Source: Acidilobaceae archaeon
GTDB lineage: Archaea; Thermoproteota; Thermoprotei_A; Sulfolobales; Acidilobaceae
Assembly: GCA_038824665.1 (NCBI GenBank)
Contig: JAWBBK010000003.1
Location: 32,318-96,317, forward strand
Length of the DNA: 64,000 nt
Reading direction: 5' to 3'
In this document: positions 4,641 to 10,100 of the stretch, in pieces
Layout of the letters: every line of letters starts with the position of its first letter
Position numbering within the stretch: position 1 is the first letter of the stretch
Notes under the pieces: model-generated
Database searches by the model: none
Told to the model about the DNA's origin: nothing
What the model saw: the letters and a program-made list of their open reading frames with translations, nothing else
Translations under genes and position numbers: made by a program

Positions 4641-6107
4641 TTGGGGTTGAGAACGATCGACTTAATACAACCGATTTCTACAAAGAAAGAGGAGAGGGAG
4701 GGAGGAACGGAAGAGCCTCATGGATGTCCGAAAATGTTAAGACTTCAAAACTATTTTAGTAGACTTAAGGGACTCAAGAAAGGTCTAGCTGAAGTTCTAG
4801 AGAACAGACCTGAACTCTCGTCTTATGTCTCAATCTTAAGAATTCTCGACTACTTCCAGTACACCAACCCTCCTTACGTCCAGAAACAGGTATCTGAAGA
4901 CCTTGGAGAGCCTCAGTCCAAGATCTCACAGCTCGTCGAAAGCTTAGAGAAGAAAGGGGTTAGAATTAGACTAGACTATTCTCATGTGCCTCTCGGTCTC
5001 AGACTTCTCGTAGTCATGTTTGAAAGCACGAAAGCCAGAGCTGACAGACTTCCTCTCATCGATTGGGTATCGACAGTTCTTAGAAGTCCTAAAGGTCTCA
5101 TAATTACATACAGAGTTCCCGCTACAAACATGCAAGAAGCTGTAGACATAATCGAGACCAGAGCAGAGCTGATGAGTGCAAGCACAGGACGCACGAGGAT
5201 CACGATACTAAGAGGAGAGGACTCACTACTGGCTAGACCTAGTCTAGAGTACTGGCTCTACAGAGTCTTCGACGAACACTCAGAGCTAGAGGAGATAGAC
5301 CCGATAAACGCTTTTGACCTTCTCGATGACCATCCGCGAAGAATCGATGCACCTGACTCTCTCGACCTCTACGAAGACATAGAGTTTAATCTCGACGAGC
5401 CTCACATAGGCTTTAGAGACATGTTCGACCTAGTTCTGCTGTCATATATGGAGGCTTCTATATTCCACACCAGATCGCGCAACCTAGAAGACCTGCTTCC
5501 AAAGAGGTTCGGTAAGCCGCGTCTTCAGGTAGAGCTCCACGAGAGCCACCTTAGAGCTGTAGCGAGAGGGAGCAAGGTCTCAATGAACGATCTAGATCCT
5601 GAAGAAGGAAACGTCATTCTATGCTGTGTAGCTTGGGGGTCTCAAAGAGAGCTAAGAACTCTATCTAGAGACCTCAAGAAGCACCCCTACGTCTACACTC
5701 TAGCTAAGTTAGAAGAGGAAGGACTGTTTTTCACTATGACAATACCGGTAGCGTTTACAAACAAGCTAGCTATAGAGCTAAGAGAAAGATATGGAGTTGA
5801 CATAGACTTATCGGTTGTTACTGTGAAAGACTTACTGTTGAGACAAGGTCTTCCCTATAGAAACTACAACCAGCTCGAGAGGTCGTGGGACTTCCGTAAC
5901 ACAGTTAAGACAGTGCTTCTGAATTATCTCAGAGGCTATGTCGAGAAGAGGAGAGAAGTACATATGAACATAAGGGAATATGTTGAGAAAGCTAAGAGTA
6001 GCTACGGAGAGGACTTGCTTTTAGAAGCCGCTAGAGATCTAGGCTATGAGTCTATAGATGAACTGATAGATGAGATTGAGAAGATCGAAGTACAGAACAG
6101 AAGATAG
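4641..6107 (+). CDS. Large tandem Lrp/AsnC-like winged-helix protein with a charged helical C-tail (putative regulator)
   Basis: N-terminal HTH (QKQVSEDLGEPQSKISQLVESLEKKGV) followed by a LGL-beta RAM-like segment; second repeat DMFDLVLLSYME...VELHESHL. Confidence 0.55.
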   Translation: MGLRTIDLIQPISTKKEEREGGTEEPHGCPKMLRLQNYFSRLKGLKKGLAEVLENRPELSSYVSILRILDYFQYTNPPYVQKQVSEDLGEPQSKISQLVESLEKKGVRIRLDYSHVPLGLRLLVVMFESTKARADRLPLIDWVSTVLRSPKGLIITYRVPATNMQEAVDIIETRAELMSASTGRTRITILRGEDSLLARPSLEYWLYRVFDEHSELEEIDPINAFDLLDDHPRRIDAPDSLDLYEDIEFNLDEPHIGFRDMFDLVLLSYMEASIFHTRSRNLEDLLPKRFGKPRLQVELHESHLRAVARGSKVSMNDLDPEEGNVILCCVAWGSQRELRTLSRDLKKHPYVYTLAKLEEEGLFFTMTIPVAFTNKLAIELRERYGVDIDLSVVTVKDLLLRQGLPYRNYNQLERSWDFRNTVKTVLLNYLRGYVEKRREVHMNIREYVEKAKSSYGEDLLLEAARDLGYESIDELIDEIEKIEVQNRR

Positions 6108-6415: not shown

Positions 6416-7732
6416 TTGACAGCTAGAGTTTATATTGAGACTTACGGTTGTGCTCTAGCAGAGTTCGAGTCTTGCATTATGGAAGAGGTTTTGAGAGCTC
6501 GCGGTTTTGAGGTTGTCAGCGACATAAGCTTAGCTGACGTGATTGTTGTAAACACTTGTGCTGTAAGACTTGATACTGAGCAGAAGATCGCTAAAAGGTT
6601 ACTCGAACTCCGAAAGTCGCGTTCTAACGCACGTTTTGTCGTAACTGGTTGTTTAGCTAAAGCTAGACCTGGTCTTGTAATTAGAGTAGTTCCTGAAGCC
6701 TCTCTGTTAGCTCCTCAAGCTGTAGAAAGAGTAGCTGAAGCTGTCAATACTGCTCTCGCTGGCTCTAAGCTTATAGTCTTGGACTGCGAGAGAGACACGT
6801 CTAGAGCTCCTCCTTTAAGACCTCAAGAAGCTGTAGGAACGGTGATGATACAAGAAGGTTGTTTAAACGAATGTAGCTTCTGTATAACCAAACTGGCTAG
6901 ACCGAAGCTAAAGAGCTATCCAATTAACGTGGTAGTTGATATGGTGAGAAGGCTTGTAGAACAAGGAGCTGTGGAGATCAGGCTTACAGGAATGGATGTA
7001 GGAGCTTATGGAGCAGACCTCTCAGATAAGCCCACTTTAGCTGACCTGTTGAGAGAAGTTCTAGACAAAGTAGAAGGAGACTATTTAATAAGGATAGGAA
7101 TGATGACTCCTGAATCAGCTCTTGAGACGATAGACGACCTGTTGGACGTATATAGAGACCCTAGAGTCTACAAGTACTTCCACATACCCGTACAGACAGG
7201 AGACGATAGGTTACTGAAGATCATGGGTAGAAAGTATAGCGTTGAAGACTATAAGGAGCTCTACAAAAAGATAAAGAACAGGTTTCCTGATGCCGTTGTG
7301 GCTACAGACATAATAGTTGGACATCCTGGAGAGGACGAAAAGTCTTTCGAGAAGACCGTTGAGCTCCTCTTAGAGCTGAGATTTGAGAAAGTACATATAG
7401 CTCAATATACCATAAGACCTCACACTAAAGCCTCGGTTTTACCTCAGGTCTCAGATAGCGTTAAGAAAGAGAGAAGCACTAAGCTCTCTAAGTTGGTCGA
7501 GTCTATATGTTATGAGAAGCTATCGAGATATAAGAGCAGAGAGGTCGTGGCTAGAGTCGTAGAGATAGGCTTTAGAAAAGAGAGTCTGATAGCTAGACTT
7601 GAGAACTACGTTCCTGTAGTGTTGAGAGGAGGAAAAGAGCTACTAAGGAAAAGAGTTAGAGTTCTGATAGAGGATAACACCTTCTTCGACCTCAGAGGTA
7701 AGGTCATAGAGGTGTTAATGAATAGAATATAG
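6416..7732 (+). CDS. mtaB: tRNA methylthiotransferase (archaeal MtaB/e-MtaB type), radical SAM + TRAM
   Basis: UPF0004 ETYGC..NTCAV..TGC, GCLNECSFC, HIPVQTG, TDIIVGHPGE. Confidence 0.88.
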   Translation: MTARVYIETYGCALAEFESCIMEEVLRARGFEVVSDISLADVIVVNTCAVRLDTEQKIAKRLLELRKSRSNARFVVTGCLAKARPGLVIRVVPEASLLAPQAVERVAEAVNTALAGSKLIVLDCERDTSRAPPLRPQEAVGTVMIQEGCLNECSFCITKLARPKLKSYPINVVVDMVRRLVEQGAVEIRLTGMDVGAYGADLSDKPTLADLLREVLDKVEGDYLIRIGMMTPESALETIDDLLDVYRDPRVYKYFHIPVQTGDDRLLKIMGRKYSVEDYKELYKKIKNRFPDAVVATDIIVGHPGEDEKSFEKTVELLLELRFEKVHIAQYTIRPHTKASVLPQVSDSVKKERSTKLSKLVESICYEKLSRYKSREVVARVVEIGFRKESLIARLENYVPVVLRGGKELLRKRVRVLIEDNTFFDLRGKVIEVLMNRI

Positions 7733-7779: not shown

Positions 7780-7920
7780 TTATTCTTCTTCTTCCTCTTC
7801 TTCCCAGAACTCTTCTTCTTCCTCTTCCTCCCAGAACTCTTCTTCTTCGTCGAATTCTTCCTCTTCTTCCCAGAATTCCTCTTCTTCTTCCTCTTCTTCT
7901 TCTACCCTCTTGCGAGGCAT
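7780..7920 (-). CDS. 46-aa hyper-acidic peptide MPRKRV-E9-FW-E5-FD-E4-FW-E7-FW-E7
   Basis: Manual translation, ATG at 7920 to TAA at 7780; Glu codons alternate GAA/GAG; TATA-like TATATATAAT at 7961-7970. Below the ORF-track cutoff. Confidence 0.7.
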   Translation of the reverse strand: MPRKRVEEEEEEEEEFWEEEEEFDEEEEFWEEEEEEEFWEEEEEEE

Positions 7921-7972
7921 AACCTTCTCACTCTCAGGTTTTTCGGCTTAGAGGTCTAAGTATATATAATTT

Positions 7973-8890
7973 TTGGGTATTGCTAGACGTGTAGTCGGCT
8001 GGCTCTTTTTGGAGATCTACGATTTCAGAAGAACTCCCTCAGTAACTGTTGACGAGAAAGAGCTGTTGTCTCTGTTAGAGGCATGTAGAGCTGGAGTCGG
8101 AAACGTGAAAGTAGACCTAGGTTTACGCTCAGCTAAAGTAGAGAAGGTCGGAAGTCTTTGTGTGATCTCTACAGAAGTCGCCGTAGTGAGAGTAGAGTCG
8201 AAAGACCTCGAAAGAGTTCTAGAAGAGTCCAGGGGAAGAGAGGTCTTTGTACTTGAAGAGAGCGGAACCGTTAGTGTAGCTGAAATCCGAGGAGCTCATT
8301 ACTATAAGTTGGTCTCTCTCGGAGAGACCGCCCCTACTCTAGAAATAAATGGAATTCATATGCATAGAGTCTCCGGAACTACTCCCTGGAAAGACGCAGA
8401 ACTCAAAGCTAGACTCGTTGGAGCGAGAAGAGGAACTAAGGTCTTAGATGTGTGTACAGGGCTCGGCTATACAGCTATACACTCGTTGCTTTTAGGAAGC
8501 GCTAGCGTCACGACGATCGAAGTTGATGAAAACGTTCTAAGCCTAGCTGAAGTAAACCCTTGGAGCGAGTTGTTAGGAAGCGAGAACGTGGTCTTAATTC
8601 ATGGAGATGCAGTTGAAGTTGTGAAAGAGCTTGAAGGAAGCTATCATGCAATCATTCATGACCCGCCTCGCTTTACGTCTTCTACGAGCAAGCTCTATAG
8701 CATAGAGTTCTACAAAGAGTTCTATAGGTTGCTGAAGAGAGAAGGAAGGCTTTTCCATTATACAGGAGAGCCAAAGAGAGCTAGAGGAGCGAGATTCCCC
8801 TCTAAAGTAGCTTCAAGACTAAGAGAAGCTGGCTTCAAGATCGTCAGATACGACCCAAGAGCTTTAGGGATAATAGCTATCAAGCTTTAA
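7973..8890 (+). CDS. Archaeal SAM-dependent methyltransferase (COG2521-like)
   Basis: PTLEINGIHMHR, VLDVCTGLGYTAI, IIHDPPRF, LFHYTGEP. Confidence 0.8.
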   Translation: MGIARRVVGWLFLEIYDFRRTPSVTVDEKELLSLLEACRAGVGNVKVDLGLRSAKVEKVGSLCVISTEVAVVRVESKDLERVLEESRGREVFVLEESGTVSVAEIRGAHYYKLVSLGETAPTLEINGIHMHRVSGTTPWKDAELKARLVGARRGTKVLDVCTGLGYTAIHSLLLGSASVTTIEVDENVLSLAEVNPWSELLGSENVVLIHGDAVEVVKELEGSYHAIIHDPPRFTSSTSKLYSIEFYKEFYRLLKREGRLFHYTGEPKRARGARFPSKVASRLREAGFKIVRYDPRALGIIAIKL

Positions 8891-8940: not shown

Positions 8941-9156
8941 TTGTTGCGTCTAAAGGAGAAAGGGGTTGCTAGAGTAGTGTACGAGAGCTTCGAGGTTGTA
9001 GAAGAGTACGTGAAGCACGGGATGAGGAGGTTCAAGGTCAGAGTCAAGGGAACCAATCTCGTTTTCGATGTGAGAGCTGACAGCGTAGAAGAGGCTTTAA
9101 AGAAAGCAGAAGAGATGGCGAAAAAACTTCGAAAGGTCAGCGAGAGTTCAAGTTGA
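8941..9156 (+). CDS. Small hypothetical protein
   Basis: Genome-typical codon usage; GGGGT SD before GTG at 8977; RVKGTNLVFDV.A...EEA beta-beta-helix pattern. Confidence 0.6.
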   Translation: MLRLKEKGVARVVYESFEVVEEYVKHGMRRFKVRVKGTNLVFDVRADSVEEALKKAEEMAKKLRKVSESSS

Positions 9157-9841
9157 CTCTGACAGTCTTATCTCCAACTATGTAGACCTTCTCTGTCTCT
9201 CTAACCTCAATCTTAAATATAGGAGCTTCATGTTTTACTCTCTCTAAAGCTTCAGCAAGAGCAGGAATGGCGTTCTTTCTTGAAAGGCCTGCTGTAGCTA
9301 TCACGATCGTCTTCTCTCCTGGCTTTCTTCTTCCTACATAATGAGCTATAGCTATGCCTTTAAGTTCCCACTTCTCTCCTACCTCTTTAGCTATTTTCTC
9401 TAAAGTCTTCTCTAAGAGTTCAGGCGAATGTTCGTAGAGTAGTTCTTGTACTCGCTCTCCTTCGCTTTTCGGTTTGACCACTCCTATGAAGAGCGCTATA
9501 GCTCCTACTTCAAGCTCGCTCAATTCGTTAACTAACTCGTTCAGGTCTATATCGTCGCTCTCTTTAAGCACCTTAACGCTCGTCTTCAAACTCCCGCCTG
9601 AAGGTAGAGGCATTAGATGAATCACATCGCTTTCGATCAGTTCTCCTCTCTCAAGCCTCTTACCGTTTCCGTCTAAGATCACGTAAGAACCTTCAAGCAC
9701 CTTCATAGCCTTAGCTATACCTTCAACTCTAGACAGCTTCTCTAAGAGTTCTTCGTAACTGTCTTTTTCTAGATCTATCTCAAGCACAGAGCTTCCCGTC
9801 AGATCTCGAAATAAAGAGTAGAGCTTGACTTTAACTTTCAA
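9137..9841 (-). CDS. moaE: MoaD/SAMP (ubiquitin-like)-MoaE molybdopterin synthase fusion
   Basis: N-terminal beta-grasp MKVKVKLYSLFRDLTG...PLPSGG, then MoaE GAIALFIGVVK, LYEH, ERVKHEAPIFKIE. Confidence 0.88.
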   Translation of the reverse strand: MKVKVKLYSLFRDLTGSSVLEIDLEKDSYEELLEKLSRVEGIAKAMKVLEGSYVILDGNGKRLERGELIESDVIHLMPLPSGGSLKTSVKVLKESDDIDLNELVNELSELEVGAIALFIGVVKPKSEGERVQELLYEHSPELLEKTLEKIAKEVGEKWELKGIAIAHYVGRRKPGEKTIVIATAGLSRKNAIPALAEALERVKHEAPIFKIEVRETEKVYIVGDKTVRVNLNSR

Positions 9842-9875
9842 TTCTGCTCCCTAGAACCGATTGCGGTGTTGCTGG

Positions 9876-10100
9876 CTAAATCTTCTTGACCGGTTTAGCT
9901 TCCCTCTTAGCCAGCTCTCCAGCTAGGTCTCGAGCTACCGTGAGACACTGATAGTCTAACCTCTCGAAGAAGATCTTAAAGAACTTGTATGCACAACGCG
10001 AGCTGTGAAACTCTAAGATCAAACCTCCTCTAGATATAATCACTCCTTGACCTTCAGGAAAGACGCGTCCACACATTAAACACTTCCGTTTGTCGCTCAA
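9876..10100 (-). CDS. TRASH/L24e-like Zn-binding protein
   Basis: CLMCG..FPEGQG...LEFHSSRC resembles L24e CxxC...FCSSKC with His in place of the third Cys. Confidence 0.65.
   Translation of the reverse strand: MSDKRKCLMCGRVFPEGQGVIISRGGLILEFHSSRCAYKFFKIFFERLDYQCLTVARDLAGELAKREAKPVKKI

Follow-up and report, generated by a model that had tools for sequence, protein, structure and literature searches.

A 46-codon open reading frame on the minus strand of the window (the whole stretch of 64,000 nucleotides analysed here) is very probably a real protein-coding gene, present once in its genome and equipped with a promoter and a ribosome-binding site of its own, and a member of a class of Glu/Trp micro-proteins of the Thermoproteota. 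We regard it as the Acidilobaceae form of this phylum-wide class, for which we found neither a published description nor an entry in a family library. The gene itself is well supported; what its product does we infer from the genomic context. The best explanation, which we hold tentatively, is that the peptide would act in trans, as a polyanion that binds to the translation apparatus and is anchored there by its aromatic residues. The features on which the argument draws are the following.

7780..7920, minus strand: coding sequence of the Glu/Phe-Trp microprotein, 46 codons, ATG at 7920-7918 and TAA at 7782-7780, recognised from sequence, composition, conservation, frame test and third-position bias.
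7923..7935, minus strand: Shine-Dalgarno-like purine stretch GAGAGTGAGAAGG, directly before the ATG of the micro-ORF and nearly identical in a relative of the same genus.
7960..7975, no strand assigned: TATA-like box TATATATA, palindromic, with an A-run on the side of the micro-ORF; conserved in genome G001.
6416..7732, plus strand: gene for a MiaB-like-B/MtaB tRNA t6A37 methylthiotransferase, a two-cluster radical-SAM enzyme, convergent to the micro-ORF (Pfam UPF0004, Radical_SAM and TRAM).
7973..8890, plus strand: gene for a UPF0020-type SAM class-I methyltransferase, divergent from the micro-ORF (Pfam class-I methyltransferase matches).

The minus strand at 7780-7920 translates to MPRKRVEEEEEEEEEFWEEEEEFDEEEEFWEEEEEEEFWEEEEEEE, 46 residues followed by the stop, exactly as the initial annotation had it: a 46-aa poly-Glu ORF with FW motifs, an ATG and a TAA. 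The predicted peptide contains 32 Glu, one Asp, four Phe and three Trp, and is 72% acidic. Its aromatic residues are located at positions 16, 17, 23, 29, 30, 38 and 39, and the C-terminus (...FWEEEEEEE) consists of seven Glu, not of an aromatic residue. Neither Cys nor His is present, and there is no zinc ribbon. In the 1.10-Mb source assembly (G000), this is the sole strongly acidic small ORF. All Arg and Lys residues fall within the first five positions, so that standard tryptic proteomics would be expected to miss the peptide.

A TATA-like element had been placed about 45 nt upstream of the start codon, and we found it there: TTATATATAC, together with the A-run that precedes it, occupies about 7960-7975, approximately 45 nt 5' of the ATG. 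Judged by its sequence, this box is a putative promoter, possibly common to the micro-ORF and the divergent methyltransferase gene. Promoter and leader differ very little between G000 and G001, although the sequences on either side have diverged, and TATA-like boxes precede the seven other Acidilobaceae copies that were inspected. A scan for bacterial promoters and terminators, a type of scan not suited to archaea, found nothing. Rfam gave no match at the micro-ORF, and the z score of the RNA fold was 0.15.

The location of the ORF between mtaB and another methyltransferase gene, likewise part of the initial annotation, agrees with the Pfam, NCBIfam and PDB matches of the two neighbours. MtaB scored 363.2 bits against NCBIfam TIGR01578 (cut-off 314.7), and the product of 7973-8890 matched PDB entry 8vyd ("SAM-dependent methyltransferase, UPF0020 family") with an E-value of 3.8e-50; the true start of this methyltransferase is probably the in-frame TTG at 8009. 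On the minus strand, 3' of the micro-ORF, lies only the antisense 3' end of mtaB, and no co-oriented gene follows. The order mtaB, micro-ORF, methyltransferase recurs at five other loci (L039, L042, L046, L048 and L051), and mtaB is syntenic with the micro-ORF in five genera.

The ORF is conserved with its start and stop codons, in frame, in 16 other Acidilobaceae loci, which upholds the earlier view of a coding microprotein as opposed to a microsatellite. Relatives lacking the ORF, or carrying it with a disrupted frame, had been named as grounds for abandoning that view; the relatives keep the ORF in frame. In other genera of the family the copies are syntenic beside mtaB and differ in length, with all length variation in frame, and aromatic residues are swapped for one another (F/W/Y/L) at matching places. 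An acidic aromatic ORF convergent to mtaB was present in 7 of the 29 mtaB loci of relatives. Among the 325 genomes searched in the order, 15 contain the motif EEFWEEEE and none the reversed-pattern control; 14 of the 15 belong to the 67 genomes of the family itself. Members occur in 7 of the 15 genera of Acidilobaceae; no copy was detected in the other 8 genera, so the gene may be dispensable. Two Acidilobaceae members retain a terminal aromatic residue, either F or Y (L049 and L039).

Confinement of the GAA/GAG variation to third positions had been put forward as a sign of coding. Within a single sequence (24 GAA and 8 GAG codons in the micro-ORF) this is trivially true, since the two codons differ only at that position; the argument holds between relatives, where third codon positions take 27 of the 34 differences in three close pairs (binomial P 4.7e-8). 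The same bias bears on whether the stretch is a gene at all, and not a purine-rich microsatellite or a regulatory DNA or RNA element that is open in one frame by chance. GAA/GAG repeats are open in all six frames, TRF reports imperfect repeats with periods of 27 and 39 in the micro-ORF, and an antisense Ser frame also makes GAA/GAG changes synonymous. However, when all six frames were compared over 20 loci, only that of Glu was both open and provided with a start codon at every locus; the aromatic codons are conserved, and the length variation respects the frame. Shine-Dalgarno-like and TATA-like words are strongly enriched upstream, and the same type of sequence is found inside longer predicted proteins of the protein library. 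A non-coding origin is thus extremely improbable. The exact number of repeats in this MAG could be slightly off, because short-read contigs from four metagenome runs (hot-spring DNA) break inside the repeat, where GAA-rich stretches from other organisms pile up.

The wider class was defined as stand-alone ORFs of 22-70 codons, at least half of them Asp or Glu, with an aromatic residue every 4-9 positions. Its members have 22-70 residues, 50-78% Glu/Asp, a Trp, Phe or Tyr every 4-9 residues and usually an aromatic C-terminus. The window ORF lies within this range in size, acidity and aromatic spacing; it also has its own TATA-like box, its own Shine-Dalgarno-like stretch and a single copy in its genome. 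It departs from the class in its C-terminus, which is not aromatic, and in its position, which is not directly upstream of ABCE1. Genomes were sampled (401 + 325 + 301) with fixed patterns, which diverged forms escape. The pattern W-EEE..W-EEEE was present in 154 of the 401 sampled Thermoproteota genomes (reversed control 0), as against 2 of 301 genomes in another archaeal phylum; for annotation, this means that a simple DNA pattern recovers the gene in these 154 genomes. All loci inspected (30 + 10 + 19) hold small Glu/Trp ORFs. Complete genomes such as G307, G127 and G334 are among the carriers.

A first tally comprised 59 distinct ORFs with a median length of 43 aa, 47 of which start with ATG. 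The C-terminal residue is Trp in 38, Phe in two, Tyr in one and Glu in 18, the latter mostly from Acidilobaceae. A Shine-Dalgarno-like word precedes 52 of 82 micro-ORFs, compared to 8.9% of control positions, and a TATA-like word is located 20-75 nt upstream of 65 of the 82, compared to 12.7% of controls. The homology of the FW form found in the window to the ABCE1-linked W form cannot be proven for sequences of such low complexity; we link the two through their composition, size, single copy per genome, and the intermediate forms L052, L049 and L039. The first of these contains ...EEFWEEEE..., ends in W, and has ABCE1 downstream.

Neither Pfam nor NCBIfam has an entry for the class, and a literature search by topic and motif strings returned no paper on it among the matches listed. 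Ten exact class sequences, including that of the window, were absent from a collection of 15 billion proteins. A profile search with alignment A1 gave matches in 6 of the family's 67 genomes and failed to recover some of the very sequences it was built from, and a search for homologous proteins gave no score to any of 35 "near" or 191 "longer" candidates. We attribute these blank searches to composition filters and not to absence. The class is an extreme case of biology hidden in ORFs that gene callers drop as short and low in complexity.

Outside Acidilobaceae, the N-terminus of ABCE1 is encoded directly downstream of the micro-ORF, on the same strand and after a gap of 53-515 nt, at 33 of 67 loci; such adjacency in related genomes does not amount to independent observations, nor is it proof of physical binding. 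These linked loci belong to 15 of the 29 families in which the micro-ORF was found; the complete genome G307 has this arrangement, as does a Sulfolobaceae-like family. ABCE1 is not nearby at 32 of the 67, where other neighbours are unrelated (e.g., AdoMet decarboxylase, Ogg, HypD). Cgi121, Sua5, THUMP, MtaB and a TFS-N-like zinc-ribbon protein recur near micro-ORFs. Within Acidilobaceae, ABCE1 was found at none of 17 micro-ORF loci and an acidic small ORF at none of 30 ABCE1 loci; in G000, ABCE1 is located on another contig, preceded by a 300-aa ORF. A read-through fusion of micro-ORF and ABCE1 was ruled out by in-frame stops in the spacers. An ABC ATPase of about 242 aa upstream of many micro-ORFs was considered as SufC and dropped, as it is LolD/MacB-like.

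The recycling of ribosomes by ABCE1 belongs to the most conserved translation steps that archaea share with eukaryotes, and in archaea aRF1/Pelota and ABCE1 are regarded as the complete system. We propose that the peptide may act in trans as a polyanionic handle, either RNA-like or resembling the tail of the ribosomal stalk. Its Glu runs would seek out a basic surface, with the aromatic residues inserted into hydrophobic pockets. A partner within translation is plausible, at somewhat less than even confidence; most probably this would be ABCE1, or else the small subunit with ABCE1 bound to it, and the peptide would modulate the partner's activity or hand-over. ABCE1 specifically is a doubtful choice. 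In Acidilobaceae, the gene would have been relocated between mtaB and the UPF0020 RNA methyltransferase, with the terminal aromatic mostly lost; given this relocation and loss, the partner in this family may instead be one of these two RNA-modifying enzymes.

A functional parallel is eIF3j/Hcr1. In eIF3j, a conserved Trp of the N-terminal acidic motif is reported to sit in a hydrophobic pocket of its partner (PMC2824034), and the N-terminus is described as contacting ABCE1 on the small subunit (PMC7780240). Both cases involve an acidic, Trp-centred stretch, which in eIF3j works with ABCE1 and in the archaeal class is genomically tied to it. In contrast to the micro-protein, eIF3j is much larger and has other domains; there is no sequence homology, archaea lack eIF3, and the comparison is a functional analogy in which ABCE1 binding by the micro-protein is putative. 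By this analogy, the Glu/Trp micro-proteins could be an overlooked cofactor that acts in trans on archaeal ABCE1 and on the small subunit after splitting, and would correspond in archaea to the eIF3j acidic motif or to the Lto1 C-terminal-Trp Fe-S adaptor; in Acidilobaceae it would have been redeployed to the adjoining tRNA-A37 modification enzymes. We give this proposal roughly one chance in a handful or a little better. If it were true, a fourth player in Pelota/aRF1-ABCE1 recycling would have been overlooked by gene callers in many genomes of the phylum; if the micro-protein is real, it is a concrete and cheaply testable candidate for a translation factor or regulator.

The same linkage could be read in cis. 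The ORF would then be a hard-to-translate leader or sensor whose acidic nascent chain makes the ribosome unstable or halts it and thereby sets the expression of the downstream gene, ABCE1 in most lineages, while the peptide itself has no role. Known parallels would be poly-acidic sequences of intrinsic ribosome destabilisation and leader peptides, MgtL among them. The co-oriented placement 53-515 nt before ABCE1 at the 33 loci fits such a leader, and if an ORF that probes ribosome stability stood ahead of the ATPase that splits ribosomes, an elegant feedback loop would result. Consecutive Asp/Glu residues at the N-terminus are reported to abort translation in bacteria and eukaryotes, whose proteomes avoid them; the effect is described for 8-10 acidic residues in a row among the first 40 codons (PMC9718836). 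The acidic runs of the window ORF are of the same kind, and ABC-F ATPases and recycling factors have been tied to such sequences in PMC11162784, PMC11282234 and PMC12673854. The known ribosome-destabilising sequences, however, either form part of a larger ORF or lead a regulated gene. The window ORF is preceded by a promoter of its own, and what it meets downstream is the 3' end of mtaB, encoded on the other strand, with no co-oriented gene. Stand-alone copies with their own signals are found in 14 families, some of them inverted relative to ABCE1 (L121, L122). T-rich stretches follow the stop codons of micro-ORFs, and the spacers before ABCE1 contain further TATA-like boxes. The same type of sequence also serves as a protein tail on zinc-ribbon proteins, and the conserved aromatic pattern and terminal Trp are more easily explained at the level of the peptide. 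A leader function is therefore unlikely, and we retain the trans-acting peptide as the preferred reading.

With almost pure poly-Glu from codon 7 onward, the ORF is an extreme case for how ribosomes translate such a sequence. Ribosomes are reported to have difficulty with chains that are poly-acidic at the N-terminus (PMC9718836), which makes it questionable how much peptide is produced.

The terminal Trp of the class, present after Glu in 38 of the 59 members, also brings to mind Fe-S delivery. Under this explanation the Glu-Trp end, like the eukaryotic [LIM]-[DES]-[WF] signal or the C-terminal Trp of Lto1, would bring the cluster-assembly machinery to ABCE1 and to other [4Fe-4S] proteins such as MtaB. 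The C-terminal Trp of yeast Lto1 is reported to recruit the CIA targeting complex for maturation of Rli1/ABCE1 (PMC4523923), and a C-terminal tripeptide targeting signal is described in PMC10245660. ABCE1, the commonest neighbour, carries two [4Fe-4S] clusters, MtaB is a radical-SAM Fe-S enzyme, and HypD and a molybdopterin oxidoreductase are neighbours elsewhere; however, Fe-S proteins are common in these genomes, and such neighbours may be due to chance. The window protein ends in Glu, as do 18 of the 59 members, its antepenultimate residue is Glu and not Leu, Ile or Met, and archaea are not known to have the WD40 subunit Cia1. PMC10245660 reports the tripeptide signal to be restricted to eukaryotes and missing from archaeal orthologues. 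We consider this role improbable. The idea that ABCE1 carries a terminal Trp of its own wherever the micro-protein lacks one was dropped, since among 29 complete ABCE1 proteins of Acidilobaceae only 3 end in this residue.

The initial annotation had proposed a disordered, acidic, aromatic-anchored binder of a basic partner, in analogy to Sem1/DSS1. The binder itself probably stands, whereas the partners then named, Cren7 and OB-fold proteins, found no support. Sem1/DSS1 is small, disordered and acidic, uses aromatic residues as anchors to its partners, and can mimic nucleic acid. Its Glu content is far lower than that of the window protein, and its partners (the proteasome lid, BRCA2) are not present in these archaea; the comparison is kept as an analogy. 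A Pfam scan of the window ORF matched no family at E-values up to 0.01, DSS1/Sem1 included, and an NCBIfam search gave no match. A general mimic of nucleic acid, or chaperone, for abundant basic DNA- and RNA-binding proteins (Cren7, Alba, SSB/OB-fold), unrelated to ABCE1, would be in keeping with the extremely anionic, aromatic-bearing composition and with the presence of such tails on small zinc-ribbon proteins, which might be nucleic-acid binders in their own right. Yet no chromatin or SSB gene is located beside any of the 84 micro-ORF loci examined, and the recurrent neighbours are genes of translation and tRNA modification. The probability of a general mimic is low, about that of the Fe-S role.

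AlphaFold2, run on alignment A3, returned a single helix over residues 2-45 with a pLDDT of 94.8. Poly-Glu is typically modelled as a confident helix, and we did not accept this one as a real fold; the complex run gave the partner a pLDDT below 50. For this complex, G000 ABCE1 was modelled from alignment A2 (29 rows) and the micro-protein from A3 (12 rows), with two 4Fe-4S clusters added; the prediction scored 0.00 against a mark of 0.32, in a run without controls, and says nothing on binding.

The class sequence is also found fused to a folded domain. In the 90-aa Thermoproteota protein L191, a LysW-type zinc ribbon (Pfam PF21344, 30.4 bits, cut-off 27) precedes a Glu/Trp tail whose style cannot be told apart from that of the micro-ORFs. 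L191 has 77 relatives in the library; among the 24 sequences examined, many are 50-100 aa long, with Glu-rich tails that contain W, Y or F and an aromatic end. LysW and ArgW are amino-group carrier proteins; apart from these, the fused ribbon family is uncharacterised. L191 also resembles FYDLN_acid (PF09538 / TIGR02300) in layout, that family having a zinc-ribbon-like start and a long Asp/Glu-rich region, and it scored 24.0 bits against the Pfam profile (cut-off 23.9). FYDLN_acid, whose N-terminal head is of the CxxC/FYDLN type, is defined by a [KR]FYDLN motif. The window ORF lacks this motif and gives no match to the family, which is described as bacterial.

These fusions suggest one further function for the micro-protein, that of a LysW-like carrier or scaffold, in which an ATP-grasp or related ligase would attach a metabolite to the C-terminal Glu and the acidic Trp tail would dock the enzymes of the pathway. 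The acidic tail of LysW docks pathway enzymes, and the ribbon of the fused relatives is of the LysW type. The canonical LysW of G000 (on contig C1, near 9.8 kb) is followed directly by a LysX-like ORF and ends in ...GEDWGE, which resembles the acidic, Trp-bearing tails of the class and, loosely, the Glu end after an FW motif in the window protein. In contrast, most class members end in Trp and not in Glu, no ATP-grasp gene lies beside any micro-ORF examined, and the genome already has this canonical LysW. LysW/ArgW proteins (PF21344, NF041070) need a ribbon domain with two Cys/His pairs, combined with an ...EDWGE end and a lysX neighbour, whereas the window protein lacks both Cys and a ribbon, has a run of Glu at its C-terminus, and is not beside lysX; the acidic tract of LysW is also far shorter. 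A carrier function is very unlikely; among the readings weighed here, only the absence of a gene is less probable. A search of G000 for a separate, tail-less zinc ribbon of the "RGRRW" type returned only the canonical LysW. The nearest clusters in the ESM Atlas score at most 0.82, too low to be of use, although the sequence of the window protein is present there letter for letter.

The micro-ORF on the minus strand of the window encodes MPRKRVEEEEEEEEEFWEEEEEFDEEEEFWEEEEEEEFWEEEEEEE, a product that contains 32 Glu, 4 Phe, 3 Trp and 1 Asp residues; Glu is encoded 24 times by GAA versus 8 times by GAG. The sequence immediately 5' of the ATG is GAGAGTGAGAAGG. The micro-ORF, its upstream element and its neighbors are as follows.

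Features at and around the micro-ORF (window coordinates)
6416-7732, convergent with the micro-ORF: MiaB-like-B/MtaB tRNA t6A37 methylthiotransferase (Pfam UPF0004, Radical_SAM and TRAM)
7780-7920, minus strand: micro-ORF of 46 codons, ATG start, TAA stop
~7960-7975, ~45 nt upstream of the micro-ORF ATG: A-run followed by TTATATATAC
7973-8890, divergent from the micro-ORF: methyltransferase

The 6416-7732 product matched NCBIfam TIGR01578 with 363.2 bits (cut-off 314.7). The top solved relative of the methyltransferase was PDB 8vyd, described as 'SAM-dependent methyltransferase, UPF0020 family' (E 3.8e-50). The TTG listed as the start of this gene (7973) overlaps the TATATATA box, and the true start is therefore probably the in-frame TTG at 8009 (MEIYDF...). 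The core of the box is palindromic and lies ~45 nt from the micro-ORF ATG and 40-48 nt before TTG 8009; because of this placement before both starts, the micro-ORF and the methyltransferase may share one promoter element (7960-8011). In the micro-ORF region, Tandem Repeats Finder reported only imperfect repeats with periods of 27 and 39, an Rfam search gave no match, and the RNA fold was no better than that of shuffled sequences (z 0.15). Pfam and NCBIfam contained nothing for the product. Everything that the initial annotation had described here (the ORF, its start and stop, its composition, the TATA-like element, and the mtaB and methyltransferase flanks) was borne out.

Two further ORFs in this part of the window deserve mention. 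The 234-aa ORF at 9137-9841 (minus strand) has a MoaE domain confined to residues 95-205; the N-terminal extension of ~90 residues is possibly a MoaD-like fusion. The 488-aa ORF at 4641-6107 (plus strand) has only sub-cut-off helix-turn-helix matches (IclR/TrmB) near its N-terminus.

The GAA/GAG runs of the micro-ORF are open in all six frames; openness alone thus says nothing, and the comparison with relatives is decisive. An acidic, aromatic-studded ORF was present in the same convergent position at the mtaB orthologue in 7 of 29 relatives; these are a species of the window's own genus and members of four other genera. Of the 325 genomes of the order, 15 contain the 24-nt pattern encoding EEFWEEEE, and 14 of these 15 come from the Acidilobaceae (67 genomes); the reversed control pattern was found in none of the 325. 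Looser searches brought in one more genus with an LW/FFD variant, and members are now known from 7 of the 15 genera of the family. Their lengths range from 44 to 65 residues, with the variation always in frame, and residue changes replace an aromatic by another aromatic or by Leu. When all six frames were compared at 20 loci, none but the Glu frame stayed open and had a start codon at every one; the antisense Ser frame, in which GAA/GAG changes are likewise silent, had no start codons at these loci, nor in the window. In three close pairs, third codon positions take 27 of the 34 nucleotide differences (binomial P 4.7e-8). The window's assembly and a congener have nearly the same TATA box and leader, whereas they differ in the sequence farther out. 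No other small ORF anywhere in the assembly (window at G000:C3:32318-96317; 1.10 Mb, 10 contigs, 82.87% complete) is strongly acidic. We consider the micro-ORF very probably a real gene on these comparative grounds; the protein-coding call made in the initial annotation was right. Within the repeat (7795-7910), short-read contigs from four hot-spring metagenome runs break off or resume and unrelated GAA-rich contigs pile up, so that the exact length of the micro-ORF in the MAG may be slightly off. Repeat numbers in MAGs at such GAA-rich loci may be unreliable.

A scan for EEFWEEEE in one genome per species (185,579 prokaryotes) returned only 29 stretches, of which 16 are small acidic ORFs of archaea, mostly from Acidilobaceae, with one each from genomes titled Thermoproteales, Bathyarchaeota and Methanobacteriota. 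The remaining 13 fall in reading frames that are longer or not acidic and mostly come from bacteria. In a sample of 401 genomes from across the window's phylum, a looser pattern (Trp-Glu3, 2-12 residues, Trp-Glu4) was present in 154 and its reversed control in 0. The looser pattern occurred in all genomes of some families (16/16 in f10, 23/23 in f23 and 5/5 in f2), in none of others (0/56 in f14 and 0/32 in f20), and in 2 of 301 genomes from the phylum of the Methanobacteriota-titled MAG. Each of the loci that we opened (30 across the phylum, 10 within the same order and 19 in additional families) holds a tiny ORF; MLWLEEEWEEEWEEEWEEEEWEEEEW and MFRFEEEEEEEEWEEEWEEEEWEEEEWEEEEEEEW are examples. 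The 59 distinct ORFs tallied first have a median length of 43 residues; the start codon is ATG in 47 and GTG or TTG in 11 (one was mis-called), all three stop codons are in use, and the C-terminal residue is Trp in 38, Glu in 18, Phe in 2 and Tyr in 1. Of 82 micro-ORFs, 52 have a Shine-Dalgarno-like word no more than 16 nt from a candidate start (8.9% of control positions do), and 65 have a TATA-like word 20-75 nt upstream (12.7% of controls); these contrasts are somewhat inflated, since micro-ORFs were given several candidate starts and controls one.

The Acidilobaceae form differs from the bulk of the class in its Phe-Trp pairs, its internal F-D and an ending that is mostly a Glu run. Intermediates exist: at one locus (L052) ...EEFWEEEE... 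is found together with a terminal Trp, two members in the Acidilobaceae themselves (L049 and L039) end in Phe or Tyr, and the ending is ...EEEEEEF in several other families. Even known class members escape profile searches; strict homology therefore cannot be shown for such sequence, and class membership rests on anatomy, on one copy per genome and on the intermediates, with no score. Taken in this sense, the micro-ORF is with high confidence both a real gene and a member of the class. Ten exact class sequences, including that of the window, had no match in a collection of ~15 billion predicted proteins; the ESM Atlas contains the window's sequence without annotation. Full-text literature searching that included the motif strings gave, among the matches listed, no paper on the class as judged by titles and the starts of abstracts. 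The micro-ORF opens onto a conserved micro-protein class that is tied to ABCE1 and absent from the papers and family libraries searched, which raises its interest above the first impression.

The tie to ABCE1 was surveyed at 67 micro-ORF loci outside the Acidilobaceae, with neighbors backed by Pfam. In 33 loci the micro-ORF is followed on its own strand, after a gap of 53-515 nt, by the ABCE1 N-terminus (Fer4_RLI, Fer4 and two ABC domains); in 2 ABCE1 has the opposite orientation and is 500-620 nt away, and in 32 (one locus incomplete) there is no ABCE1 within 1.5-2 kb. At least one ABCE1-linked copy occurs in 15 of the 29 families with a micro-ORF. By chance, one specified downstream neighbor would be expected in ~0.04 of 67 loci; kinship makes genomes non-independent, but the link extends over many families. 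Within the Acidilobaceae, ABCE1 is found at 0 of 17 micro-ORF loci and an acidic ORF at 0 of 30 ABCE1 loci; ABCE1 of the window's assembly is on another contig than the micro-ORF and is preceded by a 300-aa ORF.

Other neighbors also belong to tRNA modification and translation. A KEOPS subunit, Cgi121, is clear at one locus and sub-threshold at four; Sua5/YrdC and small THUMP proteins occur at two loci each. Neighbors of ~165 aa in f10 have no Pfam or NCBIfam match and are only 12-13% identical to the sub-threshold Cgi121-like ORFs at L129 and L130 (alignment A4). A ~95-aa protein with a TFS-N/RPB9-like zinc ribbon and an acidic ...EEREMLxEYYE... C-terminus recurs beside the micro-ORF or between it and ABCE1; it falls below every NCBIfam cut-off (TFS_arch 31-41 bits versus 64.75), and the family is therefore without a name.

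Recurring neighbors of class micro-ORFs (extracted locus: coordinates)
L090:78-1283, Cgi121 (117.8 bits, cut-off 40) and Sua5/YrdC
L100:1828-2436, Sua5/YrdC
L116:2-514, Cgi121, sub-threshold
L129:897-1394, Cgi121, sub-threshold
L130:835-1359, Cgi121, sub-threshold
L131:1625-2140, Cgi121, sub-threshold
L186:1339-1866, small THUMP protein
L194:1057-1611, small THUMP protein
L120:1744-2031, zinc-ribbon protein adjoining the micro-ORF
L121:1721-2047, zinc-ribbon protein adjoining the micro-ORF, between it and ABCE1
L122:1752-2063, zinc-ribbon protein adjoining the micro-ORF, between it and ABCE1
L123:308-622, zinc-ribbon protein adjoining the micro-ORF
L168:1065-1349, zinc-ribbon protein adjoining the micro-ORF
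L169:1616-1903, zinc-ribbon protein between micro-ORF and ABCE1
L186:2098-2409, zinc-ribbon protein between micro-ORF and ABCE1
L194:2097-2348, zinc-ribbon protein between micro-ORF and ABCE1
L196:1677-1982, zinc-ribbon protein between micro-ORF and ABCE1

Genes for aEF2 and a class-II aminoacyl-tRNA synthetase are also among the neighbors, and a Trm5/TYW2 gene adjoins the Methanobacteriota-titled copy (L062). The window's MtaB, which acts on t6A37, and its UPF0020 methyltransferase fit the tRNA/translation theme, as does this Trm5/TYW2; together with Cgi121, Sua5/YrdC and THUMP, MtaB and Trm5/TYW2 make up a recurring tRNA position-37/acceptor-end theme. In f23, the micro-ORF is directly upstream, on the same strand, of a gene for S-adenosylmethionine decarboxylase instead of ABCE1 (L178:1371-2111, and L179), a possible polyamine link.

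In one Thermoproteota genome (G563), the sole match is a 90-aa protein in which a LysW-type zinc ribbon is followed by ...VVEEEEEEEEEEWEELEEEEWEEEEEWEEEEWEEEEEEEEEEEW (L191:1977-2246, minus strand). It scores 30.4 bits against Pfam PF21344 (cut-off 27) and 24.0 against FYDLN_acid (cut-off 23.9). Scored against 1.84 billion representatives, this fused protein has 77 relatives (P0001-P0077), which are a sizeable uncharacterised family of LysW-like zinc-ribbon proteins. Many of the 24 examined are 50-100 aa long and have a zinc ribbon joined through a basic 'RGRRW/Y-LE' sequence to a Glu-rich tail, which has W, Y or F inside and usually an aromatic last residue; some longer relatives have several ribbon repeats. 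LysW is the characterised member of the ribbon family, and its acidic Trp-bearing tail serves as a docking handle. By analogy, the micro-protein may be a free-standing version of such acidic, aromatic-anchored docking tails. It is not LysW itself: the window's assembly encodes a canonical crenarchaeal-type LysW on another contig (C1 ~9,740-9,990, minus strand), with HECG as second pair and a ...GEDWGE end. A LysX-like ORF follows directly, so the genome has the carrier-protein lysine/arginine pathway.

This fused form is the chief point in favor of a product that acts in trans. In 14 families the micro-ORF also exists as a stand-alone copy that carries its own signals, and some of these copies converge with their neighbors or are inverted against them. 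This favors the same reading, as do T-rich stretches after the stop codons and additional TATA-like boxes in the spacers before ABCE1. The ABCE1-linked copies could instead be cis-acting, hard-to-translate leaders: PMC9718836 describes N-terminal Asp/Glu runs as aborting translation and being avoided by proteomes, and PMC11162784, PMC11282234 and PMC12673854 have ABC-F ATPases and recycling factors handling such runs. However, the window's copy has no co-oriented gene downstream, and a leader cannot explain it.

As a trans-acting polyanion, the micro-protein would be drawn by its Glu runs to a basic surface, with the aromatic residues as anchors. The target would be the translation apparatus, and for the class the likeliest partner would be ABCE1 or the small subunit bound by it; the Acidilobaceae form, which has been relocated, could alternatively have as partners the RNA-modification enzymes that flank it. 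We put forward a trans-acting role within translation only tentatively, as somewhat short of an even call, and regard ABCE1 as direct partner as rather unlikely. The initial annotation, which had proposed a disordered acidic mimic or chaperone of basic proteins, had the general type of product right; the partners that it named, Cren7 and OB-fold proteins, found no support. AlphaFold2 modeled the micro-protein as one helix, a model not trusted for poly-Glu.

Eukaryotic precedents make the polyanion mechanism plausible by analogy, with no homology implied. PMC2824034 describes an N-terminal acidic motif of eIF3j whose conserved Trp is held in a pocket of its partner, and PMC7780240 has the eIF3j N-terminus contacting ABCE1 on the 40S subunit. 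ABCE1 receives its Fe-S clusters via Lto1, which uses its C-terminal Trp to bind the targeting complex (PMC4523923); PMC10245660 treats [LIM]-[DES]-[WF]-COO-, the Trp of Lto1 included, as a general signal that its authors found to be eukaryote-specific. Since most class members end in Glu-Trp but the window's micro-protein lacks this end, an Lto1-like delivery of Fe-S clusters via the C-terminal Trp is kept as a rival, separate from the polyanion mechanism.

Glu/Trp-rich sequences are also present in IMG/VR viral contigs. Ten of these (L206, L212, L214, L217, L222, L226, L228, L229, L230 and L233) encode large, extremely Glu/Trp-rich proteins of >400 aa that run off the locus ends and have a ...EEWPEDWGPSPTES... 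stretch in common. Viral contig L205 contains a small ORF, MEEEEEWEEEDWEEEWEEEEEE, that resembles the archaeal class.
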